From the NCBI GenBank assembly GCA_964638585.1, contig CAZXAN010000002.1, positions 9,291-73,290 on the forward strand: 64,000 bases of DNA, in the 5' to 3' direction. Made by a program: the position numbers and the translations under genes. The DNA comes from an uncultured Candidatus Saccharibacteria bacterium (GTDB lineage Bacteria; Patescibacteriota; Minisyncoccia; Phycocordibacterales; Phycocordibacteraceae). Under the pieces are notes generated by a model. The model saw only the letters and a list, made by a program, of their open reading frames with translations. It ran no database searches and was not told the origin of the DNA. Positions within the stretch are counted from its first letter, which is position 1; each line of letters opens with the position of its first letter. Below, one piece after another: positions 2,044-55,206 of the stretch.

Positions 2044-3624
2044 TCACGTTTTCTTAGCTTTATTGGCTGGTTTTGTCTGTTCTGTCATACCGAGTGCAGA
2101 GCGGATGTGTCTACGCGCGAGAGAAGTTTTGGCTATCTCTAGCCACTTGGTTGACGGGTGTGCAGAGTCTCTCCTGATTATCTCTACAACTTCTCCGTTG
2201 CCGAGTGCAGTGTCAAACGAGACGAGCTTGCCATTGACCTTTGCGCCTTGCAGGTGGTCACCAAGGTCACTGTGTATCGCGTATGCAAAGTCTATCGGCG
2301 TAGACGCCGCTGGCAGGTCTATCACATCTCCCTTTGGAGTAAAGACGAATACGCGATGAGAAAAGAAGTCCTCCTTCAATCCCTCTACAAACTCTTGAGA
2401 GCCAGCGATGTCGGTGTGCGCTTCAGCGAGCTCAGCGAGCCACTCTGGCGCCTTGAGCGCTCCCTCTACTCTGTTTCCATTTTCTTTTTTCGTAAATCTC
2501 ATTAGCGATGGGATAAGTGAGCGCACCCAAGTGAAGGAGAGCGATGAAAACCTGCTTTTCTGTTCGCTTTTTTCAAGATTTTCTATACCTTTACCAAGCT
2601 GTTTATACGACATATGCGATGCGATACCGAACTGCGCATCGCGATGCATATCTTCTGTTCGTATCTGTATCTCTACGATGCCTGCGTTTGGTGTCACGAC
2701 TGTTGTGTGTAGAGACTGATAACCGTTTGGCTTGGGGAAGGCGATATAGTCTTTAAATTCTCCAGGTAGTGGTTTGTAAAGCGCGTGTACTATGCCAAGC
2801 GCCGCGTAACAATCTTCAACTCGCGGTACTATAAGGCGTAGTGCGGCGATATCGTGAATTAGCGTTATGTCATCATTTTTTCTCTGCAATTTCTGATGCA
2901 AGCTCCACAGCCCCTTCATACGAATAGAAGTTTTAAATTCTTTGATATCTTTTCGCATCAGCTCGCGCTTTATGTCCTTTTGTATTTGGATCAAACCGTC
3001 TTCGGTCTCTTTTGTCTTCAGTTTGCGCACCTCGGCTGTGTGAACAGCTGCGTCTGGGTCTACATAAGGGAACGCGAGATCCTCTAGCGCACGCTTCATA
3101 CGCCCCATACCAAGACGGTCTGCGATTGGCGCGTATATCTCAAGAGTTTCTAGCGCGATGCGCTTACGCTTGTGTTCTGGCACGTGCTCAAGTGTCTGCA
3201 TATTGTGTTCGCGGTCTGCGAGCTTCACTATTAGCACACGGATGTCGCTCGCTGTCGCAACAAGCAAGCGACGCAAGCTCTCTGCGTGGCGTTCTGCACC
3301 GCGATATTTGTGAGTGCCGAGCTTGGTAACTCCGTCAACGATAAAGAGAAGTTCTTTGCCGAATTCTTTTTCCATTTCTTCACGAGACACGCGACCATCC
3401 TCAACAGCGTCATGGAGTAGACCGGCGGCAATAGTCGTCGCGTCCATGCCGTATTCAGCGAGCGTCTTGGCTGTTGCAGCTGGGTGTATGAAGTACGGTT
3501 CGCCAGAGTAGCGCTTCTGCCCATCGTGAGCCTTTTTAGAAAATTCGTACGCCTTTTCTACTACTGCTACATCTCCCTCAGTCGGGCTAACCATCTCGGC
3601 GACAATATCCTTGACTGGTGTCAT
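2044..3624 (-). CDS. rel: Short bifunctional (p)ppGpp synthetase/hydrolase Rel (HD + synthetase + TGS, no ACT domain)
   Basis: HD hydrolase block HDAVEDG, synthetase block (DIAALRLIV, YQSLHTTV), TGS-like VFVFTPKGDVIDLP; only 526 aa. Confidence 0.85.
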   Translation of the reverse strand: MTPVKDIVAEMVSPTEGDVAVVEKAYEFSKKAHDGQKRYSGEPYFIHPAATAKTLAEYGMDATTIAAGLLHDAVEDGRVSREEMEKEFGKELLFIVDGVTKLGTHKYRGAERHAESLRRLLVATASDIRVLIVKLADREHNMQTLEHVPEHKRKRIALETLEIYAPIADRLGMGRMKRALEDLAFPYVDPDAAVHTAEVRKLKTKETEDGLIQIQKDIKRELMRKDIKEFKTSIRMKGLWSLHQKLQRKNDDITLIHDIAALRLIVPRVEDCYAALGIVHALYKPLPGEFKDYIAFPKPNGYQSLHTTVVTPNAGIVEIQIRTEDMHRDAQFGIASHMSYKQLGKGIENLEKSEQKSRFSSLSFTWVRSLIPSLMRFTKKENGNRVEGALKAPEWLAELAEAHTDIAGSQEFVEGLKEDFFSHRVFVFTPKGDVIDLPAASTPIDFAYAIHSDLGDHLQGAKVNGKLVSFDTALGNGEVVEIIRRDSAHPSTKWLEIAKTSLARRHIRSALGMTEQTKPANKAKKT

Positions 3625-6657: not shown

Positions 6658-7347
6658 TTAGTAACGGGAGCGTATGAGATTTATTTTGTCCCGCAGTTGC
6701 TTGTTTCCTTTGTGCAATACCCGGTCCACTATTCTAACTTGATGGTGAATCTTATCCTGGGTAAATCCTCCAAGCAATATCCCTATCTGCAAGGACGAGA
6801 CTTTCGCATCAATCCTTAGTAAATACATAAGGACTTGCTGCGGCAGGGTAACGTTGATAGCCATTCCGTCCCATTCGAGTAAAGACTCTGGCCGCACCAA
6901 GCACGCATCGCAGACGAGACCAATAACCTTGCTCATCTGCGGTACGCAGCTGGCTTTGACCATGGGTGCCGGGGACAGCTCTACTTTTTCGACAGTCGGT
7001 TGGACCGTTTTGGGCTTAGCTATTGACGGTTGCGGTCTGGCTGTTTTAAGAGTGAACCTAGTCAGTGGCAGGATAAAAACCTTGATGGGTTTAACTACGG
7101 GCACCGAGGGTTTAGCAACTTCTATCGGTGCGGTTTGCAGAACGGTTGTGATCGTTTCCTGCTTCGGCAACACGTGACGTGCTCGTAACAGTTCAAGTGC
7201 TTCTTGTTGCGCCTGAATGCTCCGATGCGATAAACATTTGCCGGTATTGTTATAGCGGTTAAGAGGCGCACCGCACTCGCGACAGCATTTTTGGGGAGGC
7301 CTCGGCGGGCCATCGTCCCCGCTCCAATCAAAGATCTCATATGCCAT
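6658..7347 (-). CDS. Hypothetical protein: N-terminal zinc-ribbon (CCRECG...CLSH), Pro/Lys-rich linker, conserved-looking C-terminal domain
   Basis: 229-aa ORF flanked on both sides by TATAAAAACAGAGAACCCGTTT terminator modules. Confidence 0.4.
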   Translation of the reverse strand: MAYEIFDWSGDDGPPRPPQKCCRECGAPLNRYNNTGKCLSHRSIQAQQEALELLRARHVLPKQETITTVLQTAPIEVAKPSVPVVKPIKVFILPLTRFTLKTARPQPSIAKPKTVQPTVEKVELSPAPMVKASCVPQMSKVIGLVCDACLVRPESLLEWDGMAINVTLPQQVLMYLLRIDAKVSSLQIGILLGGFTQDKIHHQVRIVDRVLHKGNKQLRDKINLIRSRY

Positions 7348-7442
7348 GATTCTGCACTCCCGTGTCTGCTGGTTTGCCCTGCTAAAGATGACCCATGAGG
7401 ATTATTAATCGCGAATCAACAGAAGTCAAGTTAGTTTTTAGT

Positions 7443-10226: not shown

Positions 10227-10290
10227 ACACGTCCTCAGAAATGGGGGCTAATAGATTCCGGGATAGCTCAACGGTAGAGCAGCGCCCTGT

Positions 10291-10872
10291 GGTCCATTTC
10301 CTCCCCCCGCCACGGTATATAATGTACCGAATGGCAGACAAGAGGAAATACGCCGACAGGAGAGAAGAACTCATTCGAGCGGTTGCAAAGCGCAGAAGAA
10401 AGATTAAGAGCATGGCGATTGAGTACAAAGGTGGCAAATGCCAAATTTGTGGCTACTCAAAATATCAAGGAGCGTTTGATCTTCACCACATTGATCCGAA
10501 ACAAAAAGACTTTGGTATCGGCGATAAGGGTTACACCCGATCGTGGGAGAGGGTTAAAGCGGAACTCGATAAATGCATCTTGGTTTGTGCGAATTGTCAT
10601 CGCGAGGTTGAGGCCGGCGTTACGCAGCTTCCTAAAGAGATTTAGGTTGAAAAATGAGGTGAATTCGGGGAAACCCTAACAGCGGAAATGCTGTGGGCAA
10701 TCCCGAGCCAAGCCACGACGACAGGCGTTGTGGAAGGTGTAGAGACTATCCCGCAAGGGAGTACCCTTCGAAGCTTTATGCGAAGTAGGGGAAGCGCCTC
10801 ACACCCTCGATCTGCGAAAGCAGGTACGGGTGATGATATAGTCCATCCCTCTAGGTAACTTAAGGAGCGATG
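10291..10872 (+). mobile_element. Group I intron (putative) with internal HNH ORF
   Basis: U at 5' splice site, G at 3' end; GNRA hairpins GGGGAAACCC, CAGCGGAAATGCTG, CCCGCAAGGG; P7-like GACTA/TAGTC in GTAGAGACTAT...GATATAGTCC resembling R/S elements. Confidence 0.55.
10331..10645 (+). CDS. HNH homing-endonuclease-like protein encoded inside the intron
   Basis: CQICGY...LHHIDP...CANCHR HNH/zinc-finger pattern; track ORF 10241 start is an in-frame upstream extension across the tRNA exon. Confidence 0.6.
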   Translation: MADKRKYADRREELIRAVAKRRRKIKSMAIEYKGGKCQICGYSKYQGAFDLHHIDPKQKDFGIGDKGYTRSWERVKAELDKCILVCANCHREVEAGVTQLPKEI

Positions 10873-13633: not shown

Positions 13634-15163
13634 TTAGTTTGCGTGATGTTCGGCGCGAACTTCTCCTTTATTATCTATCTCTAAGAGATGGACTCCGTAC
13701 CCCCATAACGACGCCAAATGCGTAAGCGTCTTATTAACAGAGGTTTTATCAAGTAGCACTCCGTGGCTAATGGCGTGGTGCAAAGTCAGCGTTCTGTCGC
13801 TGTCAAGGTCCACGTCTTCGATACGGATATCAGGATCATTTTGTGCGACATCGTACTGATTAGCGAGAAACCGCCTAATCTTGCGATAGCCACGCTCATC
13901 GTGAATTGCATTTACGATGATCTCCTTGTTTTCGCTTGCATCGTACAAGCTGAAAAACTTGAAGTCGCGAATGACTTTTGGTGAGAGGAATTGTTGGATA
14001 AAGCTTTCATCCCGAAATTCCTTCCACGCATCCCGCAGTATAGTCCATGGGTCACCCTTTCCAGCAAAATCTCGGAACCAGCGACGATCTTCCTCCGTTG
14101 GCTCCGTTGCTATGCGGAATATATCGCGCATCATCGCGAAGCCTAGAGCATATGGATTGATCCCCATACGATCAAAACCTCGCTGATTAAACCATGGCTG
14201 GTACACAACACTGGTATGCGAATGCAAGAATTCCAACATCGCACCATCAGTGATGAGTCCTTTTTCGTGCAGTCTGTGCATGGTTTGATAATGAACGAAT
14301 GTTGCACACCCCTCGTTCATTACCTGCGTTTGCCGCTGGGGATAAAAGTACTGTGCGATTTTCCGCACAATCCGCACAATTTCCCTTTGCCATGGCTCCA
14401 TCTTTGGTGCATGCTTCTCAACGAAATAGAGCAAATTTTCTTCTGGCAGTCCGAGTCTCCTCCTGCGCTTCTCGCGCTCTTCCTCGGTCGCCGATTTGTG
14501 GCGTTCGGGGAGCGTTTTTTTCCACAGGTCGTTGTAGGTGAGTTCAGCATGCTCCATTCTGGTCTTCTGACGTTTTTTTTCATCCGAGAGACTCAATTTC
14601 ATCGGACGTGGTGCTCGGTTGATACCGAGTGTGTGGAGAGCATGAGCTGAGTCCAGAACCTGCTCTACACGTTTTGCTCCGTGCTCGTCCTCGCATTTCA
14701 TTACGAAGTCGCGCGCGAAGGCGAGGTAGCCAAGGATCCCAGAAGCATCAGTCCACTGCTTAAAGAGATGATTATTCTTAAAGAAGTGGTTGTGACCGAA
14801 TGCCGCATGCGCGATAGTCAGTGCCTGCATCGTCATGGAATTTTCCTCCATGAGATGCACGATGCACGGATTCGTGTTAATGACGATCTCGTATGCCAGG
14901 CCAGTGATTCCTTTTTGATAAAGCCTCTCATGTTGAGCGAAATGCTTTCCGAAGGACCAGTGGCGATACATAAACGGCATGCCGTTTGATGCATATCGGT
15001 CAAGCATTTGCTCCGATGTGATGATGTCAATCTGGTTTGGATAAACATCCAGCCCGTATTCATCGATGGCTATCCTCTCAATCTCGTCGTAGGTTGCACG
15101 AATGATTGACGGTGTCCAGACGGAACTGTCGAAGAGCGGTGTGCCACATGAAGCTTTGTTCAT
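13634..15163 (-). CDS. spoVR: SpoVR/YcgB family protein
   Basis: 509 aa; conserved SpoVR blocks (HAAFGHNHFFKNN, VYQPWFNQRGF); 4-bp overlap with upstream yeaH. Confidence 0.8.
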   Translation of the reverse strand: MNKASCGTPLFDSSVWTPSIIRATYDEIERIAIDEYGLDVYPNQIDIITSEQMLDRYASNGMPFMYRHWSFGKHFAQHERLYQKGITGLAYEIVINTNPCIVHLMEENSMTMQALTIAHAAFGHNHFFKNNHLFKQWTDASGILGYLAFARDFVMKCEDEHGAKRVEQVLDSAHALHTLGINRAPRPMKLSLSDEKKRQKTRMEHAELTYNDLWKKTLPERHKSATEEEREKRRRRLGLPEENLLYFVEKHAPKMEPWQREIVRIVRKIAQYFYPQRQTQVMNEGCATFVHYQTMHRLHEKGLITDGAMLEFLHSHTSVVYQPWFNQRGFDRMGINPYALGFAMMRDIFRIATEPTEEDRRWFRDFAGKGDPWTILRDAWKEFRDESFIQQFLSPKVIRDFKFFSLYDASENKEIIVNAIHDERGYRKIRRFLANQYDVAQNDPDIRIEDVDLDSDRTLTLHHAISHGVLLDKTSVNKTLTHLASLWGYGVHLLEIDNKGEVRAEHHAN

Positions 15164-16443
15164 GATGCGCTTACTCCTTTCATTGTGTTGTCGCGCCCGA
15201 AAAGTCGGTAGAATACTCTGATAATATCTTCGGGATTTTCAACGCGCTGCATCGCGAAGTGCTCTGTCCGTATTTTTTCATAAGCACGCCACAATATTGA
15301 TGGGTGGGATTGTTCTCCAACCTCAATATATGCGTAGTACTGAAGAACTGGCAGGACTTCTGTCAACAGCTTCACGACGTCCGTAGTGTCGGCTCGATCA
15401 TTATCGCCGTCGGACGCTTGTGCAACATACATATTCCATTCGCTTGCATAGCGTACACGGATTATTTTCCTCATTTCCTCAATGGCGGACGAGACTGCCG
15501 TCCCACCGGTTTCCTGAGAAAGAAAGAAGGTTTCTTCATCAACTTCGCTTGCGCGGTCTGTGTGGCGAATGAAGACCACGTCGACTCGCTTATAGCGATT
15601 TTCCAGGAACAAACGAAGAAGAAGAAAGAAACGCTTGGCACAGTTCTTCCGCTCCTCCGTCATAGACCCGGATACATCCATCAGACAAAACATGACTGCC
15701 CTTAAAATCGGCTTCGGTGTCCTTTCAAAACGCCTGAAGCGGACATCATGGTCTGGCTCAATGAATGGAATGCGGAAATATCGAATCTTGAGTCGTGCCA
15801 GTTGCTCTCGCAACTCTCTCAGAAGTTCAGATTCTCCGTGTTTCGCTTCTTCAGTTGTAACCGCTTCTTCAAGCGCATTTAATTCCGCAAGCTTTGGACG
15901 CCCTAGAGCTATTCTTCTTCCGAGGCTCTGCCGCATCGTGCGAACGAGGTCCATCTGAGAAGGTGAGCCACTTTTTGAGAAACCAGAACGCTCACGAATG
16001 AACAAGTCGGTTTCGCCAGCCGTCTGCTTCTTCAGATTTGGCAATTCGCAATCCTCGAAGAAAAGCTCAAGGAATTCCTCGCGAGAGATGACAAACTGAA
16101 ATGAGTCAGTGGCGTCGCCTTTACCGGCAGTATCTCCTGTTCCCATTCCTCCGTCTCCTGACCCTCCGCTCGGACGAGCAATTCGATCTCCCTCGGTGAA
16201 TTTTTCATTGCCGGGGAATACACGATTGCGATCGCCACCGGAGTTTGATTTGCGAATGAACGGTTCGTCAATGCCGTCGATAGGTATCGATACTTGTTTG
16301 CTGTTGCCAGGGTCGGTGATTATACTCTTTCCCTGAAGTGCTTCGTCCACTATACGGCGTACGTTCGCTTTCGCTCTCTTGATAAACCGCACACGATTGG
16401 GGACGCTTGCTCCGCGTGATCCGCGTTTGTCTCTAATCTCCAT
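15160..16443 (-). CDS. yeaH: YeaH/YhbH (DUF444) vWA-like protein
   Basis: 427 aa, Gly-rich segment, acidic blocks; positioned between prkA and spoVR. Confidence 0.75.
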   Translation of the reverse strand: MEIRDKRGSRGASVPNRVRFIKRAKANVRRIVDEALQGKSIITDPGNSKQVSIPIDGIDEPFIRKSNSGGDRNRVFPGNEKFTEGDRIARPSGGSGDGGMGTGDTAGKGDATDSFQFVISREEFLELFFEDCELPNLKKQTAGETDLFIRERSGFSKSGSPSQMDLVRTMRQSLGRRIALGRPKLAELNALEEAVTTEEAKHGESELLRELREQLARLKIRYFRIPFIEPDHDVRFRRFERTPKPILRAVMFCLMDVSGSMTEERKNCAKRFFLLLRLFLENRYKRVDVVFIRHTDRASEVDEETFFLSQETGGTAVSSAIEEMRKIIRVRYASEWNMYVAQASDGDNDRADTTDVVKLLTEVLPVLQYYAYIEVGEQSHPSILWRAYEKIRTEHFAMQRVENPEDIIRVFYRLFGRDNTMKGVSAS

Positions 16444-16524
16444 AGTCGATTCTCCTTGGTGACCATTTTTTGAAAAGAAAAGGGCTGGCAGACGTGATGC
16501 CTGCCAGCCCCCGTTCCGTCCAGC

Positions 16525-18522
16525 CTAGGATTTCTTGACTCGAATGTACCACTCCACTAAACGCCTGATTTGGCGTTCGGTGTTTCCGTTTTTCTTCATC
16601 CGAGCGACAAAATCCAAATGTTTCCTTTCTGTCTCCGAGTCCTTCTTGGTGTCAAAGGTGAGAACAGGCAGAAGGTCCTCCATAGAACCGAATACCTGAC
16701 TCTCTATAACGTGCCGCAGTTTTTCGTATGAATCCCACCGCGGATTCCTGCCGCCGTTATTTGCTCGATAGCGAAGCACATAATTAAGCACCTCGTTGCG
16801 GAAGTCCTTCGGATTTGCGATGCCCGCAGGCTTCTCAATCTTGGAGAGTTCCGCATCGATCGACTCCTTGTTTAGTAGCTGGCCGGTTTGCTGATCCCTG
16901 AAGTCATTGTTGGCCACCCACGCATCCGCCCAATCGATGTAGCGGTCAAACTTGTTCTGGCCATACTCTTCGAATGACTCCAGGTACGCCGATTGAAGTT
17001 CCTTTTCCAGATGCTCAGCATACTTTGGCAGTAGTTCCCCCTTGATGAACGCGAGAAGCTGTTTCGTTCGCTCAGAAGGGAATTCCTCGCGAAGAATCTG
17101 CTGTTCCAGTACGTACATGAGCTGTACGGGATCAGCAGCGACTTCAACAGTGTCATGGTTGAAGGTAGCGGACAGGACCTTATACGCAAGTCGCGTTGAA
17201 AGTCCAATCATGCCCTCGTCCTGACCTGCCGCATCGCGGTATTCCTGCACCGACTTTGCCTTCGGATCAGTATCCTTGATATCGTCGCCGTTGTAGACGC
17301 GCATCTTGGAATAAAGATCAGAGTTTTCATGCTCCTTGAGCCGAGATAGTACGCAGAACTGCGCCAGCATCTCGAGCGTTCCGGGTGCACACGGCGAACC
17401 GACAAGCTCACTTCCAGAGATCAACTTCTTGTAAATTTGTTGCTCTTCCGAATACCGGAGGCAGTACGGTACCTTGACGATACAGATGCGATCCAGAAAG
17501 GCTTGGTTGTTCTTGTTGCTCTTGAACGCCAGCCACTCTGTCTCGTTGCTGTGTGCAAGGATGATGCCCTGGAAGGGCAACATACCGATGTTATCGGTTC
17601 CCGCATAATTGCTTTCCTGCGTCGCGGTCAAGAGCGGATGAAGCATCTTGATCGGTGCCTTGAACATTTCAACGAACTCAAGAAGCCCCTGATTAGCCCG
17701 ATTAAGCCCGCCGGCGTAGCCGTATGCATCTGCGTCGCTTTGAGAAAATTGATCAAGCTTGCGCAGATCAACCTTCCCGATAAGTGCAGAGACATCCTGA
17801 TTGTTCTCATCTCCGGGCTCCACCTTCGCCACGGCAATCTGCCGTAATTGCGAAGGATACAGCTCCAGAACGGAGAACCTCGTGATGTCATTGTCGAAAT
17901 CTCTGTGGAGGCGATTAAGCGCCCACGGAGACGCGACAGAAACAAGCCTACGTCTCGGGATGTTGTAATTTCTTTCCAGCGTCGCACCATCCCGTTCTGC
18001 GTCGAAGAGCCCGAGAGGGCTTTCGAACAGTGGACTGGCTTCGTACTCTTGTCCGTCGATAGCGAAGAGAGGGCCGGTGATCACATCATTTTTTTCACCC
18101 ATCTTGCGCTTGGCGAGAACATAGATGGGTTCCTTTTCCATCAATGTTTTCAACCGTTCTGCAAGCGATGATTTACCGCCACCGACCGGACCGAGGAGAT
18201 ACAGAACCTGTTTTCGTTCCTCGAGTCCTTGTGCTCCATGTCTGAAGAATGCGACCAAAAATTCAATCGCCTCCTCCATGCCATAGAAGCCTTCAAATGC
18301 CGCATACCGCCGAATAGTCCGGCTCATGAAGATCTTTGCCAGACGCGGATCCTTCTCCTTCGGCGTGTCCACGAGAATGGGCTCACCAATCGCCTTGAGC
18401 ATTCGCTCGTGGGCGTTCGCATAAAAAGCGGGAGACTTCCTGCATCCTTCGAGATATTCTTCCAGCGACATCTTCCTTACCTGCCTGTTACGGTGAAGCT
18501 CTTTCAGTTCCGAAATGCTCAT
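16525..18522 (-). CDS. prkA: PrkA-type serine protein kinase (YeaG)
   Basis: Walker A LLGPVGGGKSSLAERLK, 665 aa PrkA architecture. Confidence 0.85.
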   Translation of the reverse strand: MSISELKELHRNRQVRKMSLEEYLEGCRKSPAFYANAHERMLKAIGEPILVDTPKEKDPRLAKIFMSRTIRRYAAFEGFYGMEEAIEFLVAFFRHGAQGLEERKQVLYLLGPVGGGKSSLAERLKTLMEKEPIYVLAKRKMGEKNDVITGPLFAIDGQEYEASPLFESPLGLFDAERDGATLERNYNIPRRRLVSVASPWALNRLHRDFDNDITRFSVLELYPSQLRQIAVAKVEPGDENNQDVSALIGKVDLRKLDQFSQSDADAYGYAGGLNRANQGLLEFVEMFKAPIKMLHPLLTATQESNYAGTDNIGMLPFQGIILAHSNETEWLAFKSNKNNQAFLDRICIVKVPYCLRYSEEQQIYKKLISGSELVGSPCAPGTLEMLAQFCVLSRLKEHENSDLYSKMRVYNGDDIKDTDPKAKSVQEYRDAAGQDEGMIGLSTRLAYKVLSATFNHDTVEVAADPVQLMYVLEQQILREEFPSERTKQLLAFIKGELLPKYAEHLEKELQSAYLESFEEYGQNKFDRYIDWADAWVANNDFRDQQTGQLLNKESIDAELSKIEKPAGIANPKDFRNEVLNYVLRYRANNGGRNPRWDSYEKLRHVIESQVFGSMEDLLPVLTFDTKKDSETERKHLDFVARMKKNGNTERQIRRLVEWYIRVKKS

Positions 18523-24703: not shown

Positions 24704-25852
24704 TTGTTATACTCACTGTATGACTGCCTACTGCTCCTGCTAACTGCTATGTCTATTCTCATTTTTATTGTCGTTATAGTGGCGCTCATTATTGTCCACG
24801 AGCTTGGGCATTTTATCGTAGCTAAATGGTCGGGGATGCGCGTGGACGAATTCGGACTCGGATATCCACCGCGTGCGATGATCATCGGTGAGAAAAACGG
24901 CACTCTCTACACTCTTAACTGGTTGCCATTTGGAGGCTTTGTGAAGATATTTGGCGAAAATAGTGAGCAGGAAGCAGTAGCAGACAGCAGATCATTCACA
25001 TCAAGGCCAAGAATCCAGCAGGCGCTGGTGCTTGTCGCTGGGGTTGCGATGAATCTCTTATTTGCGTACGTACTGATCACAGGCGCGCTAATCGCCGGCA
25101 CACCGCGAGCGCTTTCTGAGAGCGAAGTCGCTACTGCAAAAAATGTAGAGCTTGCTGTCGCAAATGTTCTATCTGGCTCGCCAGCCGCGCTCGCAGGGGT
25201 TGTGCCGGGCGACATAATCCTCTCGTCAGAAGACGGACACTATTTATATGATGGGACAGATCCTGCAGAGTTCACAAAGTTTGTCGCAAATGGAGCCGGC
25301 AACACAACTATCGCACTCTCTGTACGGCACGCGAGCGGAGAAGAAGAATTACTTTTTGCACGGCCAGTAGCTGGTGTAATCGCCTCAGACAAGTCGCGCC
25401 CTGCGCTCGGCGTTGAAGTCGCGACAATCGGCGTAGTGCCTATTTCGTTTGGCTCGGCGATTGTTGAAGGCGCACGGCTCACATGGGGTGCGACTGTCTT
25501 GACTGCGCAAGGCCTCTGGCACTTCTTCTACGGCGTCTTCACCTTTTCAGCCGATCTCTCGCAAGTCGCCGGGCCGGTCGGCATCGCTGGTGCTGTCGGT
25601 TCGGCGTCTATGCAAGGCTTTGGTTATCTATTTTCAATAATGGCTATTATTTCTATCAATCTCGCGCTCATTAATTTAATTCCTATTCCTGCGCTTGATG
25701 GTGGCCGTCTTCTTTTTGTAATTATAGAAAGCATCATTCGCAGACCGATTAAAGCGAGTGTCGCGCAGGCGGTCAACGGCGTCGGCTTCGTCTTCTTAAT
25801 TCTTCTAATGCTCGTCGTCACAGCCAACGACATCTTCAAAATCGTCGGCTAG
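24704..25852 (+). CDS. rseP: RseP-type site-2 zinc metalloprotease with PDZ domain
   Basis: HELGHF, PDZ GSPAALAGVVPGDIIL, C-terminal LDGG. Confidence 0.8.
   Translation: MLYSLYDCLLLLLTAMSILIFIVVIVALIIVHELGHFIVAKWSGMRVDEFGLGYPPRAMIIGEKNGTLYTLNWLPFGGFVKIFGENSEQEAVADSRSFTSRPRIQQALVLVAGVAMNLLFAYVLITGALIAGTPRALSESEVATAKNVELAVANVLSGSPAALAGVVPGDIILSSEDGHYLYDGTDPAEFTKFVANGAGNTTIALSVRHASGEEELLFARPVAGVIASDKSRPALGVEVATIGVVPISFGSAIVEGARLTWGATVLTAQGLWHFFYGVFTFSADLSQVAGPVGIAGAVGSASMQGFGYLFSIMAIISINLALINLIPIPALDGGRLLFVIIESIIRRPIKASVAQAVNGVGFVFLILLMLVVTANDIFKIVG
25811..25852 (+). repeat. Copy A of 42-bp direct repeat (3' end of rseP)
   Basis: CTCGTCGTCACAGCCAACGACATCTTCAAAATCGTCGGCTAG versus copy B at 26207-26248; 35/42 identical. 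Confidence 0.6.
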
Positions 25853-26292
25853 TGGGGAAGTGTGATTTTCGTCTCGATTGCGAGAGCTTCTATCTGTCTG
25901 TCGTGTCGAGCGAGATGTATAGAACCCATGCTATTTTCATTTCGTAAATCCTGGATCGCCCCCGAGAGACCGTCAACTGCGTTCTCGATTCGTCCGACCG
26001 CAAGTGCCACAGAGTCTAGTTTATCGCTGACTTCACCAATCTCGACTCGCACACCGACAATCTCCTCCCCAAGTTCTTTCTTTGTAGAAAAAGCTTTAAG
26101 GTCCGCTTTTGTAGCGAAGACACTTTTAAGTTTAGTTATGTCCGTATCGGTAATCATGCGAGGAATTGTATCACAAGTAATGCTAAGGGGTATTCCGTAT
26201 TCACAGCTCGTCGTCACCGCCCACGACATCTTTAAAATTGTTGGGTAAATGCTTTTGCGCTTCGCGCGGGAGGGGCATATACTGTGAAGCAT
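25849..26292 (-). CDS. Hypothetical coiled-coil protein inserted between rseP and proS
   Basis: 147-aa ORF with protein-like composition, bracketed by the duplicated rseP 3' end. Confidence 0.35.
   Translation of the reverse strand: MLHSICPSRAKRKSIYPTILKMSWAVTTSCEYGIPLSITCDTIPRMITDTDITKLKSVFATKADLKAFSTKKELGEEIVGVRVEIGEVSDKLDSVALAVGRIENAVDGLSGAIQDLRNENSMGSIHLARHDRQIEALAIETKITLPH
26207..26248 (+). repeat. Copy B of 42-bp direct repeat (relic rseP 3' end)
   Basis: CTCGTCGTCACCGCCCACGACATCTTTAAAATTGTTGGGTAA; encodes ...LVVTAHDIFKIVG* versus rseP ...LVVTANDIFKIVG*. Confidence 0.6.
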
Positions 26293-27523
26293 GAGGCAGT
26301 CAAAGCTTTTTACTAAGGCGAGGCGCGAAGCGCCGAGCGACGAGGTCGCGAAAAATGCACAGCTCCTCGTGCGCGCGGGCTATATCCATAAAGAAATGGC
26401 GGGAGTGTATTCGTATCTGCCACTCGGTTTGCGTACTTTAAATAAGATAGTGCAGATTATTCGCGAAGAGATGAACGCCATCGGCGGACAGGAATTATTG
26501 CTTTCATCTCTACAAAATCCGGAACTGTGGAAGAAGACTGATCGATGGAATCAGGATGTGTGGTTTAAGACGTCGCTCAACGTCGGTGGCGAGTTAGGCC
26601 TCGGCTGGACACAAGAAGAAGCGATTACGCACATGGCGACACAACACGTTAGCTCGTATCGCGACTTACCTTTCGCCGGTTACCAGATACAAACGAAGTT
26701 TAGAAATGAAGAGCGTGCGAAGTCTGGCATCATGCGCGGGCGCGAATTCTTAATGAAGGACTTGTATTCTTTTCATGTTGATCAAAACGATCTGGATGCG
26801 TTTTACGAGAAAGCTACTGAGGCGTACAAGAATGTATTTAATAGAGCTGGCATCGGCGATAAAACATTTGTGACGTTTGCATCTGGCGGAGCATTTTCTA
26901 AATATAGTCACGAATTCCAGACGCTTAATCCAGCCGGCGAGGACACTATATATGTATCGCGTGAGAAAAATATTGCAATAAATAAAGAAGTTTTGACTGA
27001 TGAGGTGTTAGCTGACCTCGGCGTATCGCGAGAGAGCCTAGAGGAGTCGCAGGCAGTAGAAGTCGGCAATATATTTAAACTCGGCACGCGCTTTTCCGAG
27101 CCACTCGGACTCTCATATGTAGATAAAGATGGCAAAAAGAATCCAGTGGTTATGGGTTGTTATGGCGTTGGTCCTACGCGCTTGATGGGTGTCATTGTTG
27201 AAGCTTTGTCTGACGACAAGGGTCTTGTCTGGCCCGAGGCTGTCGCGCCGTTTAAAGTACATCTCGTTTCGCTCGGCAAAGAAGGCGATGACATAACGAA
27301 ATGCGCAGAAGGCGTTTATGCTGAGCTTGTCGAAGCAGGTGTTGAAGTCTTGTATGACGATCGCGATGCACGCGCCGGCGAGAAGTTCGCAGAAAGTGAC
27401 CTGCTCGGCATACCAAAGAGAATTGTGGTCGGGAAGGACGCGGTCGCCACTGGCGAGTTTGAAGTGGTTGACCGCGCGAGTGGAAAGGTAGAGAAAGTGT
27501 CGCGCGCAAAACTGGTTGGATAA
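26291..27523 (+). CDS. proS: Prolyl-tRNA synthetase (short bacterial type without insertion/editing domain)
   Basis: Class II motifs FRNEERAKSGIMRGREF and GCYGVGPTRLMGV, C-terminal anticodon-binding domain. Confidence 0.85.
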   Translation: MRQSKLFTKARREAPSDEVAKNAQLLVRAGYIHKEMAGVYSYLPLGLRTLNKIVQIIREEMNAIGGQELLLSSLQNPELWKKTDRWNQDVWFKTSLNVGGELGLGWTQEEAITHMATQHVSSYRDLPFAGYQIQTKFRNEERAKSGIMRGREFLMKDLYSFHVDQNDLDAFYEKATEAYKNVFNRAGIGDKTFVTFASGGAFSKYSHEFQTLNPAGEDTIYVSREKNIAINKEVLTDEVLADLGVSRESLEESQAVEVGNIFKLGTRFSEPLGLSYVDKDGKKNPVVMGCYGVGPTRLMGVIVEALSDDKGLVWPEAVAPFKVHLVSLGKEGDDITKCAEGVYAELVEAGVEVLYDDRDARAGEKFAESDLLGIPKRIVVGKDAVATGEFEVVDRASGKVEKVSRAKLVG

Positions 27524-38775: not shown

Positions 38776-39828
38776 ATGGAAAAGAAATCTTCAAATTCAA
38801 GTCTTCATCGGGCAGCCAAGGTGAAAAATGATGAGTTTTACACGCAACTCGCGGACATTGAAAGGGAGCTGAAACACTATAAAAATCAGTTTCTGGGGAA
38901 GGTCATTTATTGCAATTGCGATGACCCATTTGAGAGCAATTTTTTTAAATATTTTGCTGCCAACTTTAACGCATTAGGACTGAAAAGACTTATTACCACA
39001 AGTTACATAAAGTCGCCAATTGCTGGCGGGCAGTTGCCACTATTTGAAGTAGAAGGACTAAAGCCATTAGGTAAAGAGCCGTTTAAGATTGAAATTAATG
39101 AAGTACCAGATTCTGATGAAGATGGTGCAATAAATCTTGATGACGTTAAGTTTTTACTAAGGCACAACAAGAACACCGCTACACCGCTACGCGGCACCGG
39201 CGATTTCCGAAGCGAAGAATGTGTAGAACTTCTCAAGGAAGCAGATATAGTTTGCACCAATCCTCCATTTTCTCTTTTTCGTGAGTATGTAGCTCAACTC
39301 GTTGAATATGGGAAGAAATTTTTGATTATAGGAAACGACAATGCGAGAAAGTATCAAGATATTTTTAAACTAGTTCAAAAAAATAAACTCTGGCCTGGCT
39401 ATGGGAGAGTAAAAGAATTTATGCAACCAGATAAAACTATCAAGAAATTTGGTAATGTCGGATGGTTTACGAATCTTGATGTGGCAAAAAGAGATGAGTC
39501 TTTGACTCTGTATAAAAAATACAACTCAAAAGAGTTTCTCAAATATGATAATTACGATGCAATAGAAGTATCAAAGGTCTCAGAGATTCCGATGGACTAT
39601 AAGGGCGTAATGGGCGTTCCAATAACTTTTCTTGATAAATATAATCCAAATCAATTTGAAATTTTGGGAATGTCAGACAATAGAGATCCCAATTACAAGT
39701 TTCGAACCAAGTTGTATACTCAAAAGGATTCACCAGAGTATAACGACTTAAATAGGGGCACAGTGATAAAAATCAAGGGAGAACTTAAATCCACGTTTAC
39801 TCGTTTGTTAATCAAAGCTAAAAAATAA
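38776..39828 (+). CDS. N6-adenine DNA methyltransferase (EcoRI-methylase-like family)
   Basis: N-terminal KNDEFYTQ and catalytic NPPF motif. Confidence 0.65.
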   Translation: MEKKSSNSSLHRAAKVKNDEFYTQLADIERELKHYKNQFLGKVIYCNCDDPFESNFFKYFAANFNALGLKRLITTSYIKSPIAGGQLPLFEVEGLKPLGKEPFKIEINEVPDSDEDGAINLDDVKFLLRHNKNTATPLRGTGDFRSEECVELLKEADIVCTNPPFSLFREYVAQLVEYGKKFLIIGNDNARKYQDIFKLVQKNKLWPGYGRVKEFMQPDKTIKKFGNVGWFTNLDVAKRDESLTLYKKYNSKEFLKYDNYDAIEVSKVSEIPMDYKGVMGVPITFLDKYNPNQFEILGMSDNRDPNYKFRTKLYTQKDSPEYNDLNRGTVIKIKGELKSTFTRLLIKAKK

Positions 39829-39829
39829 T

Positions 39830-40936
39830 ATGAAAATTGAATTGCAAAAAATTTCGATTCGCGATGTGATGACCGGCTATAAAGACAGTCACGAAGAAGG
39901 AGTGGTCGCTTACGACGGCAAACTCGATGTCCGTCCGAAATACCAACGTGAGTTTGTCTACAAAGACAAACAACGCGATGCAGTTCTTGATACCGTCAAG
40001 AAGGGATTCCCGCTCAACGTGATGTACTGGATGGTGCGCGATGATGGCGGCTACGAGGTACTCGATGGTCAGCAACGTACCATCAGCCTTGGCCAGTATG
40101 TCAGCGGCGACTTCTCGCTCAATGATCGCTTTTTCCATAATCTAACCAAGGAAGAGCAAGAGCAGATACTGGCTTATGAATTGATGATTTATTTCTGCGA
40201 GGGTACGGACAAGGAGCGACTGGACTGGTTTAAGACCATCAATATCGCGGGTGAAAAACTAACGGATCAAGAATTGCGAAATGCCGTTTATACCGGCCCG
40301 TGGCTTTCTGATGCGAAACTCAAATTCAGCAAATCAAATTGCGCCGCATATCTTCTTGCAAACGATGGAGGGCAGTTGGTAAGCGGTTCGCTCATTCGAC
40401 AGGAATATTTGGAAACTGCACTTTCGTGGATAAACAACGATGAGATTGCTGACTACATGGCGAAGCATCAGCACGACAAAGATGCTAACGCATTGTGGGA
40501 GTATTTTCAAAATGTCATTGCATGGGTGCGTAAGGTATTTCCGAGCTACCGCAAAGAAATGGCGAGTGTAAATTGGGGCGAGTTGTACAATCAGTTCAAA
40601 GATAAGGAACTGGACGCCACGAAACTAGAGGTCGAAGTTGCAAAGTTGATGCAGGACGAAGACGTGACGAAAAAGTCCGGTATTTATCCATATCTCTTAA
40701 CAGGAGAAGAAAAACATCTTTCTATCCGTGCGTTTAACGATAAGATGAAACGCGAGGCATATGAGAGACAGAAAGGTATTTGCACTCACTGCAAAGGTGA
40801 AGACAAGAAAAAGAAATGGGAAATAGAAGAAATGGAAGCCGATCATATAAAGCCTTGGCATGAGGGTGGAAAAACTACCGCTGGGAATTGCCAGATGTTG
40901 TGCAAACAGGATAATCGCACTAAGTCTGGGAAATAA
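39830..40936 (+). CDS. DUF262 (ParB-like, DGQQR) + C-terminal HNH/DUF1524 nuclease (GmrSD-like)
   Basis: DGQQRTISL motif; C-terminal CTHCKG...ADHIKPWHEGGKTTAGNCQMLCKQDN HNH; starts 2 nt after MTase stop. Confidence 0.65.
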   Translation: MKIELQKISIRDVMTGYKDSHEEGVVAYDGKLDVRPKYQREFVYKDKQRDAVLDTVKKGFPLNVMYWMVRDDGGYEVLDGQQRTISLGQYVSGDFSLNDRFFHNLTKEEQEQILAYELMIYFCEGTDKERLDWFKTINIAGEKLTDQELRNAVYTGPWLSDAKLKFSKSNCAAYLLANDGGQLVSGSLIRQEYLETALSWINNDEIADYMAKHQHDKDANALWEYFQNVIAWVRKVFPSYRKEMASVNWGELYNQFKDKELDATKLEVEVAKLMQDEDVTKKSGIYPYLLTGEEKHLSIRAFNDKMKREAYERQKGICTHCKGEDKKKKWEIEEMEADHIKPWHEGGKTTAGNCQMLCKQDNRTKSGK

Positions 40937-40988
40937 AACAGTGAAAGGCTGACTACGATCCAGCATCGATCCATATGGATAAATCGAA

Positions 40989-41456
40989 ATGAAAAACCTA
41001 GCATATCAAGACATAATTAAGGAAAATATCACCATTATCTTAACGTTTGTATTTTCTCGCGAGAGGCTGCAGGAGATATCAAACGATAGGACCTTGGGAG
41101 AGTGGAAATTTCTAGGGGACGCAGTTAGCGAGGCCACTTTGGCCAGAGCAGAACGTGCCGCACTGGAGTTGGGGATTTTATTTCGCCTACTGGACGACAA
41201 GTATAAAATACCGAACTACTTTAAAGATAAAAAGACAATTGTTTTTGGTTTAATCTCTGGAGGATCGGAGTCAGGTCAACATCTGTCTGCTAGAGAAATG
41301 TCCAACAAAATCGTGCATGCACAAGATTTGAAATGGGATACGAGATCATCGAAAGAACCTAAGCTAATTTGCATATCCAACCAACCAGACAGATGGCAAT
41401 CAGCAGAAATCGATGTTTTAAAGCTTGCTCTCCTTTGTAGTCAGCTCATGCGTTGA
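40989..41456 (+). CDS. Hypothetical protein (no recognisable domain)
   Basis: 155 aa between GmrSD-like gene and mrr. Confidence 0.35.
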   Translation: MKNLAYQDIIKENITIILTFVFSRERLQEISNDRTLGEWKFLGDAVSEATLARAERAALELGILFRLLDDKYKIPNYFKDKKTIVFGLISGGSESGQHLSAREMSNKIVHAQDLKWDTRSSKEPKLICISNQPDRWQSAEIDVLKLALLCSQLMR

Positions 41457-41602
41457 AATTGTATGGTGGGAAATGGGTACAGAAACTATTGTTTTGCGTT
41501 TGCGTGATCTGATAATTCAGCAAAGTGGGTGCTGATGGACGAGTACACTCAATCATTATTTCAATCATTGCATTGAGGACCTAAAGATGATCTAATCATC
41601 GA

Positions 41603-42493
41603 ATGGAGAAGCAGATACCTAAATTTCAAGAGACATTTTTGCCAATTTTAAAAGTCCTTGATAAGGAAGGAACTATTCGAACGAGTGAGTTGAAGAAAAA
41701 AGTTCGAGATGGATTTTATGGAGATCTTCCGAAAGAGTTACTTGAGGAGACCACAAAGAATGGAGACATCTTAATACTTAATCGTATCGCCTGGGGTAAG
41801 GCATATCTGAAGCAGGGAGGAATGATTGAGCAGCCAGAACGAGCACTCGTTCGGATCACTGCTAAAGGGCAAAAGATATTAAAACAAGGTGGACTCTCAC
41901 TAAAAGAATTGTTGCATGACGAGGACTTTCTGGCACGCAGACTAGAAGGCAAAAAAACAAGAGAGGAAGAAGACACTATTGATGCGAGCGCTTCGCCCCA
42001 GGATCTAATTGACGCTGGCTTCAAAGCAGTCGAGACTTCAGCAAAAACTGATTTATTATCTAGATTGAAAGGCATTGATCCCTTCTATTTTCAGAAGGTT
42101 ATTTTACTGCTATTGGAAAAAATGGGTTACGGGGATTTCATCGAGACGCCAAAGTCAGGGGACGGAGGGATTGACGGCGTGATTAGTCAGGATAAACTCG
42201 GGCTTGAGAAAATATATATCCAGGCGAAAAGATATACTGAAAATAAGGTAAGAGAGGGCGAGATTCGTAATTTTATTGGAGCGATGAGTCGCGATGCGAA
42301 TAAGGGGATTTTTGTTACTACCTCTACGTTTGATGAAAAGGCTGTTCAGAAGGCGCGCGATGCTGGGCAGAAAATAGTTCTAGTCGATGGCTCTATGTTG
42401 GTTGATCTAATGTATAAATATGGAATCGGGGTGCAGGTACGAAGTACCTATGAGATTAAACAAGTTGATGATGATTTTTTTGAAGAAGAATAA
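41603..42493 (+). CDS. mrr: Mrr-family restriction endonuclease (Mrr_N winged helix + Mrr_cat)
   Basis: GDGGIDGV...YIQAKRY catalytic block, N-terminal wHTH. Confidence 0.7.
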   Translation: MEKQIPKFQETFLPILKVLDKEGTIRTSELKKKVRDGFYGDLPKELLEETTKNGDILILNRIAWGKAYLKQGGMIEQPERALVRITAKGQKILKQGGLSLKELLHDEDFLARRLEGKKTREEEDTIDASASPQDLIDAGFKAVETSAKTDLLSRLKGIDPFYFQKVILLLLEKMGYGDFIETPKSGDGGIDGVISQDKLGLEKIYIQAKRYTENKVREGEIRNFIGAMSRDANKGIFVTTSTFDEKAVQKARDAGQKIVLVDGSMLVDLMYKYGIGVQVRSTYEIKQVDDDFFEEE

Positions 42494-42557
42494 CAACTTC
42501 AGGTTTTAGCAACGGGAACCCTTGCTCACTCGCGAATGCTAGAGGCATTGTAGTTGT

Positions 42558-42637
42558 GCGGTATAATGGGGGTGTTACCAGTTAATGCGAAAGCTATGCA
42601 TAATCCACACAAGGGAGGGCTCTTTTTCGGGGCGGTT
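42558..42637 (+). repeat. Copy 1 of ~80-bp direct repeat (promoter-like TATAAT + ATG CAT AAT CCA... gene start), upstream of fic
   Basis: GCGGTATAATGGGGGTGTTACCAGTTAATGCGAAAGCTATGCATAATCCACACAAGGGAGGGCTCTTTTTCGGGGCGGT; encodes truncated MHNPHKGGLFFGAV... (21 aa then stop). Confidence 0.6.
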
Positions 42638-42739
42638 ATACACAGGTGGCTTACAAGTTAGTTGACAGGAGTGCTTCTAGGATATACTATATCGATAGTT
42701 AGTTTATCTACTAAGCATCACCATAAACTAACTCGAAAT

Positions 42740-43861
42740 ATGAATATAGAGATAGGCAAAACAGTGAAGCAACGAGAAGGCTTTTCAGCCTTTGTTCCGA
42801 ACCCTTTTCCACCAGAGGGTCTCTTTGACCTACCACAGGACATTCTCATCAAGGCGGCCGAAGCCGATCGTTTAGTCGGCAAACTAGATGGCATTACACA
42901 CACGCTCCCAGACGTAGATTTTTTCCTGCATATGTTCGTTGCAAAGGATGCAGAGTCCTCAGCCCAAATCGAGGGTACGCGGGCGACTATGATGGATGCT
43001 CTAAAGAAGGGTGCCGGTCTCGTACCAACTGCGACTGACGCCGACGATATTCTCTACTATATACAAGCGTTGAATTACGGAACAAAACGACTCAAGACTT
43101 TGCCACTATCCTCCAGACTCATACGGGAAGTACACGCTAAGCTTATGGTGGGGGCTCGAGCCACGCATTTCGCAAATCCTGGCGAATTCAGGACGTCGCC
43201 AAACTGGATTGGCGGCACGGCGCCAAACAACGCGCTCTATGTACCGCCGCCCGCGCCTGAGATGCATCGCGCACTCAATGATTTTGAAAAATTTCTTCAT
43301 GACGAGAAAAGTGTGCTGCCTCTGATTCATATCGCGCTTGCGCATGCCCAATTTGAGACGATCCATCCGTTTTTGGACGGTAATGGCCGCACAGGCCGTC
43401 TCATCGTTACGATGCTTCTTTGTCATCGCGGCTTACTTGAGCGGCCGGTATTATTTCTTTCATCCTATTTTAGACGACATCAGAAGGTCTACTACACTCG
43501 GCTGAATGGTTATCATGACGGTGATGTTCACGCGTGGCTGGATTTCTTTCTGGATGGCGTTATTGATACGGCAAACGAATCTATTGAGATATCAAAAAAG
43601 ATACGCAAGATTCGTGATACTGACATGGCAAAAATTCAGGCTCTCGCAAAAAGGGAGTCGGAGAGTGGCGTGGTTGTACTACCGCGTCTTTTCCGTGAAC
43701 CTGTCGTAACAGCCACGACGGTGATGAAGTGGACAAGGTTTTCACGAGCAGGGGCTCTCAAATTACTCGATCGCTTTGTCGCGCTTGGGATTCTTGAATC
43801 CGTTCAGTCGCAAGGGCAGGGGCGAAGTTTTGTATATCGACGTTATATTGATGTGTTTTAG
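42740..43861 (+). CDS. fic: Fic/Doc family protein
   Basis: Fic motif HPFLDGNGRTGRL; start at ATG 42740. Confidence 0.8.
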   Translation: MNIEIGKTVKQREGFSAFVPNPFPPEGLFDLPQDILIKAAEADRLVGKLDGITHTLPDVDFFLHMFVAKDAESSAQIEGTRATMMDALKKGAGLVPTATDADDILYYIQALNYGTKRLKTLPLSSRLIREVHAKLMVGARATHFANPGEFRTSPNWIGGTAPNNALYVPPPAPEMHRALNDFEKFLHDEKSVLPLIHIALAHAQFETIHPFLDGNGRTGRLIVTMLLCHRGLLERPVLFLSSYFRRHQKVYYTRLNGYHDGDVHAWLDFFLDGVIDTANESIEISKKIRKIRDTDMAKIQALAKRESESGVVVLPRLFREPVVTATTVMKWTRFSRAGALKLLDRFVALGILESVQSQGQGRSFVYRRYIDVF

Positions 43862-43904
43862 GACTACCATGGCTCACTTGCGAAGTCTAAAGATTGGTAG
43901 TCGC

Positions 43905-43983
43905 GCGGTATAATAGGGGTGTTACCAAATAACGATAAAGCTATGCATAATCCACACAAGGGAGGGCTCTTTTTCGGGGCGGT
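43905..43983 (+). repeat. Copy 2 of ~80-bp direct repeat; here it is the functional promoter and 5' end of gene 43919-44200
   Basis: GCGGTATAATAGGGGTGTTACCAAATAACGATAAAGCTATGCATAATCCACACAAGGGAGGGCTCTTTTTCGGGGCGGT; about 90 percent identical to copy 1. Confidence 0.6.
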
Positions 43984-44200
43984 GCTGGGCGGGGTGCACG
44001 TCGTCTGGGCTCTACTCATCGCGCTCGGATGGGCACAGTCGCTCATTAACTTCAGCTTCTGGGCGCACATGATCCACTTGAATGTCGTTATTGGGCCCTT
44101 TGACGCGACGGCCGCACTGACGGTCATCGTCGTGGCCGCTATCATCGGTTACGTGGTCGGCTATCTCGCCACGCTCATCTGGAACAGGGTCAATCGTTAA
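43919..44200 (+). CDS. Small 2-3 TM membrane protein
   Basis: 93 aa hydrophobic; 5' end lies in repeat copy 2. Confidence 0.35.
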   Translation: MLPNNDKAMHNPHKGGLFFGAVLGGVHVVWALLIALGWAQSLINFSFWAHMIHLNVVIGPFDATAALTVIVVAAIIGYVVGYLATLIWNRVNR

Positions 44201-55156: not shown

Positions 55157-55206
55157 GTATCCACAGAAGCAGTTGCAATCTGTACACGTACGTGTACAAT
55201 GGAAGC

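Follow-up and report, generated by a model that had tools for sequence, protein, structure and literature searches.

Displaced gene ends bracket small gene cassettes beside housekeeping genes in a Kaiserbacteria-like bacterium

Two copies of the rseP terminus

A 64-kb stretch of bacterial DNA (GenBank assembly GCA_964638585.1, contig CAZXAN010000002.1, positions 9,291 to 73,290; hereinafter, the window, to which all coordinates refer unless a related locus is named) carries, between rseP, the gene for a site-2 protease, and proS, a small gene that is bracketed by two copies of the rseP 3' end. The nearest relatives of RseP and RmuC from the window are found in metagenome-assembled genomes of Kaiserbacteria-like Paceibacterota, that is, within the Patescibacteria, or Candidate Phyla Radiation (CPR), bacteria with tiny, streamlined genomes and few recognizable mobile elements. 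The gene order frr-rseP-proS-mreB is retained in 80 relatives, as established by tblastn synteny, and the hot spots described below were compared across a set of related loci labeled L001-L185.

The rseP gene (24749-25852, plus strand) encodes a protein of 367 aa counted from the ATG at 24749, a length on which independent gene calls agree, with Peptidase_M50 and PDZ domains (Pfam PF02163, E = 6e-54). The functional terminus of this gene, copy 1 (25810-25852, plus strand), encodes LVVTANDIFKIVG followed by a stop codon that overlaps, within the palindrome CTAG, the stop codon of the small cargo gene located on the minus strand (25849-26157). The cargo gene product consists of 102 aa; the first-pass annotation of the window had assigned 147 aa to the bracketed open reading frame (ORF), whereas 61 of the 61 homologs start with MITD, and independent gene calls agree with the shorter version. 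The region upstream of the cargo gene (26158-26205, minus strand), in which an extended -10-like box, TGATACAAT, can be read on the minus strand 7 nt before the ATG, forms the right edge of the insert and ends in TATTCACAG beside copy 2. The latter, a silent pseudo-end of rseP (26206-26248, plus strand), spells LVVTAHDIFKIVG followed by a stop codon. It is joined to the native rseP-proS spacer with the proS promoter region (26249-26290, plus strand) and then to proS itself (26291-27523, plus strand; tRNA-synt_2b and HGTP_anticodon domains), which tblastn synteny identifies as the right conserved flank.

Alignment of positions 25811-25852 (CTCGTCGTCACAGCCAACGACATCTTCAAAATCGTCGGCTAG, translated as LVVTANDIFKIVG and stop) with 26207-26248 (CTCGTCGTCACCGCCCACGACATCTTTAAAATTGTTGGGTAA, translated as LVVTAHDIFKIVG and stop) yields 35 identities in 42 positions, in full agreement with the 42-bp repeat of the rseP terminus reported in the first-pass annotation, or 36 in 43 when the G common to 25810 and 26206 is included. 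A 32-nt consensus of the repeat, with up to 3 mismatches allowed, matches only these two sites in the 64 kb, with 0 matches expected from shuffled sequences, and a generic terminator motif is rejected on these grounds. When each gene end in the window was scanned against its own 4-kb downstream region (background maximum of ~17), scores far over background were obtained for the 5' end of the gene 43943-44200 (67), the 3' end of rmuC (40) and the 3' end of rseP (27).

An insertion at the rseP 3' end is supported by the empty rseP-proS junctions in relatives, which had been anticipated: seven loci (L004, L005, L006, L007, L012, L016 and L020) have gaps of 24-56 bp. The empty site of L005, which consists of the rseP end, a 42-nt spacer and the proS start, is collinear with 26206-26305 of the window. 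Copy 2 is identical to the functional rseP end of L005 in 39 of the 42 positions, and the spacer in L005 is nearly the same as that in the window (ATGCTTTTGCGCTT..GGAGGGGCATATACT). No relationship with rseP is seen in the window sequence to the left of 26206. Because copy 2 and the 42 nt that follow are collinear with this empty site, the distal copy is the native, resident terminus of rseP, displaced downstream. The functional terminus, copy 1, is probably cassette-borne, at least, in its 3' half; over its last 26 nt, TAG included, there is no difference from the termini that accompany the homologous cassette in L003. The inserted DNA comprises 396 bp (25810-26205), namely, an imported rseP terminus followed by the small gene with the region upstream of it.

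The two copies are not a terminus that was duplicated upon insertion, as originally proposed, but different alleles, with the differences located mostly at third codon positions (6 of the 7 in the rseP pair). Between copies 1 and 2 of the rmuC end (see below), 18 of the 18 differences over 28 codons are synonymous. In ten pairs of functional ends and pseudo-ends from six genomes, 88 differences are distributed as 15/5/68 over codon positions 1/2/3, with 62 synonymous vs 14 nonsynonymous codons (binomial p = 4e-17 against one third). This third-position excess implies that the copies diverged as working gene ends in different lineages and, accordingly, do not represent a target-site duplication decaying in place. 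Target-site duplication by a transposon or insertion sequence is rejected given this synonymous bias and the lack of both inverted repeats within 25780-26300 and a transposase among the 30 window ORFs compared with Pfam. A diversity-generating retroelement is rejected as well because the differences (A/C, C/T, C/G and G/A) occur at synonymous sites and are not adenine-specific, and no reverse transcriptase was found among the tested window ORFs. Sliding-window comparison of rseP with 18 relatives revealed no mosaic segment or close donor of the imported end, and the shift in third-position GC content at the rmuC crossover was too noisy a signal to be used.

The cargo protein, which in the window starts with MITDTDITKLK, belongs to a family seen only in Kaiserbacteria-like bacteria, the members of which combine an invariant N-terminus with an invariant C-terminal HLxRHDRQI motif. 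The AlphaFold model of this protein is a single helix over residues 25-96 (predicted local distance difference test score, pLDDT, of 87). In keeping with the coiled-coil character noted at first pass, a profile search against the PDB recovered generic coiled coils, but nothing more specific. The protein has no family in Pfam, PHROG, NCBIfam or PADLOC, and no relative was found in IMG/VR. Within the family (alignment A3, columns ~40-100), the number of FATKxDLK repeats ranges from none beyond the conserved N-terminal FATK motif up to about five, and in L081 and L086 these repeats appear as tandem DNA repeats. The small gene is located between rseP and proS in L003, L081, L086, L178, L179 and L180, and also in a tRNA cluster in L083.

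The rmuC array and related loci

The recurrence of the pattern at rmuC was borne out and turned out to be richer than first described, with three copies of the gene end and two cassettes. The rmuC gene (53144-54202, plus strand; Pfam RmuC, E = 2e-50), the product of which ends in LLDKPLASEA, contains in its last ~108 nt (54095-54202, plus strand) the first of the three copies, which make up repeat family D1 and were also recovered as blastn self-hits. Next comes cassette A, with a gene for a 259-aa membrane ORFan (54218-54997, plus strand; GC content of 0.37 vs 0.48 for the window) that has no Pfam family and, in a set of 5.8 billion proteins, no homolog besides itself. Just before rmuC pseudo-end 2 (55036-55156, plus strand; GYKELGKIDKDVYRISESKIG / EPELLDKPTTELE and stop, with the tail PTTELE), there is a hairpin, AGCAAGGG-CTA-CCCTTGCT (55008-55026, plus strand), of a type that also precedes cassette starts in L185. 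Cassette B (55207-55746, plus strand) carries a toxin-antitoxin (TA) pair, a Phd/YefM antitoxin (55207-55476, PF02604) and a ParE/RelE toxin (55489-55746, PF05016). Pseudo-end 3 (55741-55826, plus strand; IDKDVYRISGSKIDIEPELLDKPATGE and stop), the native terminus, starts inside the toxin stop codon and is followed by TAATGTTGCATTCGGCTCGGG, the spacer found after the functional rmuC ends in L112 and L127; in the window, this spacer reads TAATGTTGCATTC... With the native end in the most distal position, the array is readable as a chronology of events. The ELE tail of pseudo-end 2 matches the functional rmuC end that is joined to the same TA cassette in L181 and L182, where this functional end (PMSELE and stop) is immediately followed by the TA promoter seen in the window, and the junction of the toxin stop codon with a pseudo-end, TAG/ACAAAGACGT, is identical to that in the window. 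The intermediate predicted for the array thus exists in L181 and L182. The antitoxin has 75 homologs, up to 95% identical, and the TA pair is always located in the rmuC-rplU gap, at different array positions.

Several structured sequences were observed in this region. A 16-nt perfect palindrome, TCCGCCAGCTGGCGGA (55099-55114), located right after CAAAATCGGT, replaces one codon of pseudo-end 2 and causes a frameshift. The native rmuC-rplU spacer contains a perfect 11-nt inverted repeat (CGGCTCGGGCA / TGCCCGAGCCG, 55836-55846 / 56021-56031) with the arms 174 nt apart, and L112 has a complementary pair of different wording (GGCTCGGGAGTGAC / GTCACTCACGAGCC) at the same place. The two pairs together suggest a conserved structured leader upstream of rplU.

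The rseP-proS gap, short in many genomes, is 100-2943 bp long elsewhere and contains many different small ORFs, according to a reading by eye of the ORFs in 43 occupied or proS-lacking loci; the rmuC-rplU gap is 32-55 bp when empty and up to ~2.6 kb when occupied. From the variable sizes and contents of these gaps, we conclude that both are cassette hot spots; the boundaries are formed by short stretches of housekeeping genes with high conservation at the nucleotide level. Pseudo-ends of the respective own rseP gene were detected downstream of rseP in L001, L003 (two), L178 and the distant lineages L057 and L049, and those of the own rmuC downstream of rmuC in L112 (two), L127, L181, L182 and L185 (two), which adds up to about ten other Paceibacterota genomes. 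No signal over background was obtained in the controls, either on the reverse strand or upstream. In L003, the first pseudo-end brackets a homolog of the small gene with 62% identity. In L178, the pseudo-end is split by hairpin repeats, and the junction ..ATCCACAG/TTCGTCGTCA is common to this locus and the window.

The clearest case for mobility is L183. The RmuC protein encoded in this locus is only 42% identical to that from the window and has a different C-terminus, yet the TA pair is closely similar (92% identity for the antitoxin and 73% for the toxin), and behind this pair lies a pseudo-end of the type seen in the window (YKELGKMDKDVYRIAGTRLDIEPELLDKP; YKELGK.DKDVYRI type). Comparison of these sequences indicates that the cassettes move horizontally, pseudo-end included. 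In front of the same TA pair, the rplU promoter and the first 11 codons of rplU are present as a pseudo copy, and in L046, the proS promoter is duplicated likewise, so that either flank of a hot spot can serve as the anchor. Thus, the recurrence of cassette gain that had been proposed for gene 3' ends stands, whereas the restriction to 3' ends does not, given that 5' ends and promoters are duplicated as well. The left edges of the pseudo-ends differ by ~25-30 nt between events: in the window, L001 and L003, the starts of the rseP pseudo-ends lie within ~10 nt of one another, and those of L057, L049 and the rmuC set differ by up to 30 nt, with later erosion possible. The duplicated segments are local maxima of nucleotide conservation (0.80-0.85 for rseP and 0.83 for rmuC). 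In L009 (~7305-7410) and L015 (~7150-7255), insertions of ~100 bp that resemble miniature inverted-repeat transposable elements, with terminal inverted repeats TCCCGTTAGAAG, are located exactly at the proS start codon, with ATGAG duplicated on both sides, which regenerates the proS start.

A mirror-image case within the window involves SoFic (42662-43861, plus strand), a single-gene defense protein of the Fic/DOC type (PADLOC SoFic, E = 1e-105; Pfam Fic and Fic_N). Upstream of this gene lies a displaced 5' end, which consists of the promoter and the first 14 codons of the gene 43943-44200 (42550-42636, plus strand; repeat D2), and the functional copy of this segment, attached to its gene, follows (43897-43983, plus strand). 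The two copies are 91% identical over 87 nt; the repeat that flanks SoFic extends over 87-130 nt and has a sharp right edge, inside the coding sequence, and a fading left edge. The SoFic cassette is the last component of a defense island (38776-43861) that encodes, in succession, an EcoRI-like adenine methylase, a type II restriction enzyme (GmrSD_N and HNH domains), a 155-aa unknown protein and an Mrr-type type IV enzyme. Elsewhere in the window, there is a PrkA-DUF444-SpoVR operon (13634-18522), in a small-genome bacterium, and a group I intron (10600-10865; Rfam RF00028, 62 bits) directly after an HNH endonuclease ORF (10241-10645), with no host rRNA or tRNA gene detected at 10241-10865.

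Mechanism and alternative explanations

The explanation that we favor, with moderate confidence, is homology-anchored insertion-duplication, that is, C-terminal displacement of the kind proposed for rhs genes, acting on housekeeping genes. Under this scenario, foreign DNA that carried an rseP 3' end, the small gene and its upstream region would have recombined with the resident rseP, with the conserved last ~42-50 nt of the gene as the anchor. Two routes would lead to the same product: a single crossover with a small circle (Campbell-type insertion-duplication) or a one-ended homologous invasion followed by end joining. The outcome would be an intact rseP with a partly imported terminus, followed by the cargo, with the resident terminus shunted 396 bp downstream, where this pseudo-end would be silent and still joined to the native spacer and proS. 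Repeated events would stack cassettes, with the native end outermost, as in the order rmuC - cassette A - pseudo-end 2 - TA - pseudo-end 3. The direct repeats could later release a cassette, either as a circle available for further transfer or by precise deletion. The driver would be general homologous recombination rather than a dedicated integrase; a circular intermediate, dependence on RecA and DNA entry by natural transformation are presumed parts of this scheme. General homologous recombination is favored because no recombinase was found in the cassettes or among the 30 window ORFs compared with Pfam, no inverted repeats were found at the rseP cassette, at least five unrelated sequences are duplicated (the 3' ends of rseP and rmuC, the 5' end of rplU, the proS promoter and the 5' end of the gene 43943), the left edges are variable, and the duplicated segments coincide with conservation peaks.

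Several observations weigh against this explanation. For RecA-type recombination, 42 nt that include 7 mismatches make a very short anchor. Neither a circular form nor presence/absence polymorphism was found, and the contigs with identical RseP or RmuC, which are consensus contigs, all show the same arrangement. The junction common to the window and L178 can be explained equally well by repeated events and by a single unit, either inherited or mobile. The small gene beside rseP lacks a pseudo-end in L081, L086, L179 and L180 and is accompanied by the terminus repeat in L003 and L178, such that the association of the ORF with the repeat postulated at first pass holds for one part of the relatives; accordingly, a part of the distribution of this gene may be vertical, with pseudo-ends lost later. 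Furthermore, the recombinase search covered only 64 kb of this genome, and the hairpin repeats and the motif TATCCACA(G) at many cassette edges hint at a sequence-specific enzyme.

The latter features are the basis of the best alternative, which we nevertheless consider unlikely, namely, site-specific integration by a tyrosine, serine or HUH recombinase encoded elsewhere in the genome, such that the cassettes would be integrase-less satellites similar to cis-mobilizable elements (CIMEs), with an att site that mimics the end of the target gene and with the hairpins and TATCCACAG as recognition elements. The direct repeats that overlap the gene 3' end, together with an element that restores the reading frame, make up a classic attL/attR picture; tandem accretion is seen, and the window and L178 have one junction in common. 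A further point in favor is the structured repeat denoted E (~50-80 nt), which lies between cassettes, often just 5' of pseudo-ends, and was found only in the two hot spots. Repeat E comprises a hairpin in which the stem covaries (5' arm TATCCA/TATCAA...) and the CGGTCGT loop is conserved, along with a second, variable hairpin. Copies of this repeat were identified in L001 (7211-7288), L003 (7591-7665), L061 (7371-7404), L100 (2964-3041 and 3669-3746), L112 (6112-6187 and 6635-6712), L185 (2414-2474, 2862-2945 and 3528-3602) and L178 (~2767-2943). Matches to the respective model, R1, score up to 89 bits, and every strong match (at least 52 bits) is on the strand of the target gene; in L100, two copies flank the TA pair and stand in for pseudo-ends. 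Repeat E has no Rfam family, and there is no exact match to two consensus patterns in IMG/VR; together with the lack of a relative of the small protein in that database, this led to the rejection of a viral origin. The DnaA-box-like motif TATCCACA(G/A) is enriched as well: of its 56 occurrences, 7, all on the target-gene, plus strand, fall in hot-spot gaps, which account for 3.5% of the sequence (p = 0.003). This motif (window 55156-55165 and 26197-26205; also L001, L003, L017, L046, L100, L105, L150, L178 and L181-L185) is found as the left edge of the TA cassette, as the edge that adjoins the pseudo-end of rseP (in the window, TATTCACAG) and as the 5' arm of the E hairpin.

Other observations weigh against such a recombinase. 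There was no Pfam match to an integrase, transposase or reverse transcriptase among 30 window ORFs, including all cassette genes, with the other ~36 ORFs read by eye only, and no recombinase was noticed by eye, without a domain search, in the inserts of the 43 related loci. The duplicated sequences, of which there are at least five, are unrelated and have no clear common core; TC[CT]AAAATCG, common to the rseP and rmuC repeats, is weak (p ~0.07 by a rough hand estimate). The pseudo-ends differ by 25-30 nt in where their left edges fall, repeat E is absent from the window, including the rseP cassette, and this cassette has no terminal inverted repeats within 25780-26300.

A more specific version of trans-encoded recombination, which we view as doubtful and still less probable, is a dedicated cassette-capture platform of Paceibacterota, analogous but unrelated to integrons, in which gene termini and the hairpin repeat, with its CGGTCGT loop and TATCCACA in the 5' arm, would serve as att sites for the recombinase, and the resident TA pair would stabilize the array. 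Another palindrome, ACATAGG(N3-5)CCTATGT, was also observed at these loci: six instances were retrieved with a regular expression in 1.6 Mb and a seventh was found in L185, nearly all at junctions of cassettes and pseudo-ends (L001 7267-7283; L003 7480-7496; L108 5177-5193; L112 6166-6182; L127 5919-5935; L150 3053-3069; L185 ~3580-3600), with a variant in the window (55008-55026).

An old vertical arrangement, with the small gene ancestrally located beside rseP, one local duplication followed by gene conversion, and empty sites that result from secondary deletions, seems quite improbable. The presence of the small gene between rseP and proS in many Kaiserbacteria-like genomes, the divergence of the small protein (57-68% identity), which is comparable to that of RseP, and the junction common to the window and L178 are all compatible with vertical descent, as is a lineage-specific codon common to the pseudo-end of L181 and its own functional end. 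Such descent does not readily account for the rseP pseudo-end of the window, which, with its spacer, is closer to the functional end of L005 (39/42) than to its own (35/42), and which is non-coding yet retains an intact frame with only synonymous changes from the consensus. The small gene in the tRNA cluster of L083, the TA cassette of L183 with a foreign-type pseudo-end, and the low GC content (0.37) of the ORFan in cassette A are equally at odds with this scenario.

Finally, a metagenome assembly artefact, in which two strain alleles of the rseP end were joined in tandem, is extremely improbable and was rejected for the window: perfect 55-nt direct repeats in L001 (7786-7840/7941-7995) and L062 (4831-4885/4986-5040), of which the pair in L001 flanks a run of N, do look assembler-made, are most likely assembly or scaffolding artefacts and were left out of the evidence, but the repeats in the window match only imperfectly (83-91%) and do not reach the length of assembler k-mers. 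Moreover, two pipelines independently recovered the identical arrangement from several samples, and homologous arrangements come from unrelated studies.

Relation to known systems and implications

The closest parallel to homology-anchored insertion-duplication is the C-terminal displacement model proposed for rhs genes, under which a small circle that carries a core fragment of variable length and a tip would integrate by homologous recombination in a single crossover, and the old tip would be shunted into a silent position (Jackson et al. 2009, PMC2935791). As in rhs loci, an intact gene is followed by displaced 3' fragments on the same strand (one for rseP and two for rmuC in the window, and up to two in L003, L112 and L185). 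The fragments begin with conserved gene sequence of variable length, here with left edges that differ by ~25-30 nt; the newest tip is attached to the gene, with the older tips distal, and the incoming DNA can differ in composition. The differences are substantial as well. The targets here are single-copy housekeeping genes, rseP and rmuC, rather than toxins, and the tip consists of 14-35 codons for the same peptide, which leaves the target protein unaltered, whereas rhs tips are alternative, non-homologous domains, usually accompanied by an immunity gene. The cargo, in rhs loci a new toxin domain with its immunity gene, here consists of one or two genes independent of the target protein, and the 5' ends and promoters at the opposite flank are displaced as well. 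Similar orphan arrays are present at the polymorphic-toxin loci cdiA and mafB.

Integrase-encoding islands and CIMEs, some of which lack an integrase, insert in the 3' ends of tRNA or protein-coding genes. The loci described here resemble such elements in that the target gene is completed by one of the direct repeats (attL/attR), in the empty sites in relatives and in tandem accretion, but differ in that no integrase was found nearby, the inserts are only 0.2-1.4 kb long, and there are several unrelated 'att' sequences in one genome, with variable repeat edges. In the minimal mobile elements of Neisseria, genes are thought to be exchanged via transformation and homologous recombination in the flanks. 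The likeness in this case consists in a fixed site that is flanked by two conserved genes, varies in gene content from genome to genome and lacks mobility genes; however, the Neisseria sites are described as clean replacements, whereas here some events leave displaced copies of the flank, which points to integration with a single anchor. Integrons, in turn, are similar in their arrays of small, mostly single-gene cassettes, with the TA cassette as a constant resident and, in the relatives, a hairpin repeat between cassettes. Here, in contrast, no IntI was found among the window ORFs compared with Pfam, and there is no attC with GTTRRRY cores, which are missing also from repeat E of the relatives; the cassettes have their own promoters and occur in either orientation, and attI x attC recombination does not produce copies of 40-110 nt of the neighbor gene.

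A full-text search of the literature on cassette hot spots in Patescibacteria retrieved nothing specific. The analysis described here indicates that, in these bacteria, fixed hot spots beside housekeeping genes stack single-gene cassettes that encode a TA pair, SoFic, ORFans and a conserved coiled-coil protein, and that the displaced gene ends record the order of events. C-terminal displacement would also be extended from polymorphic-toxin genes to ordinary genes in CPR bacteria. If this interpretation is correct, short, ultra-conserved gene termini would be universal landing pads between genomes that are too diverged to recombine otherwise, which would provide a simple rule for gene flow across the phylum and a design principle for engineering its few cultivable members.

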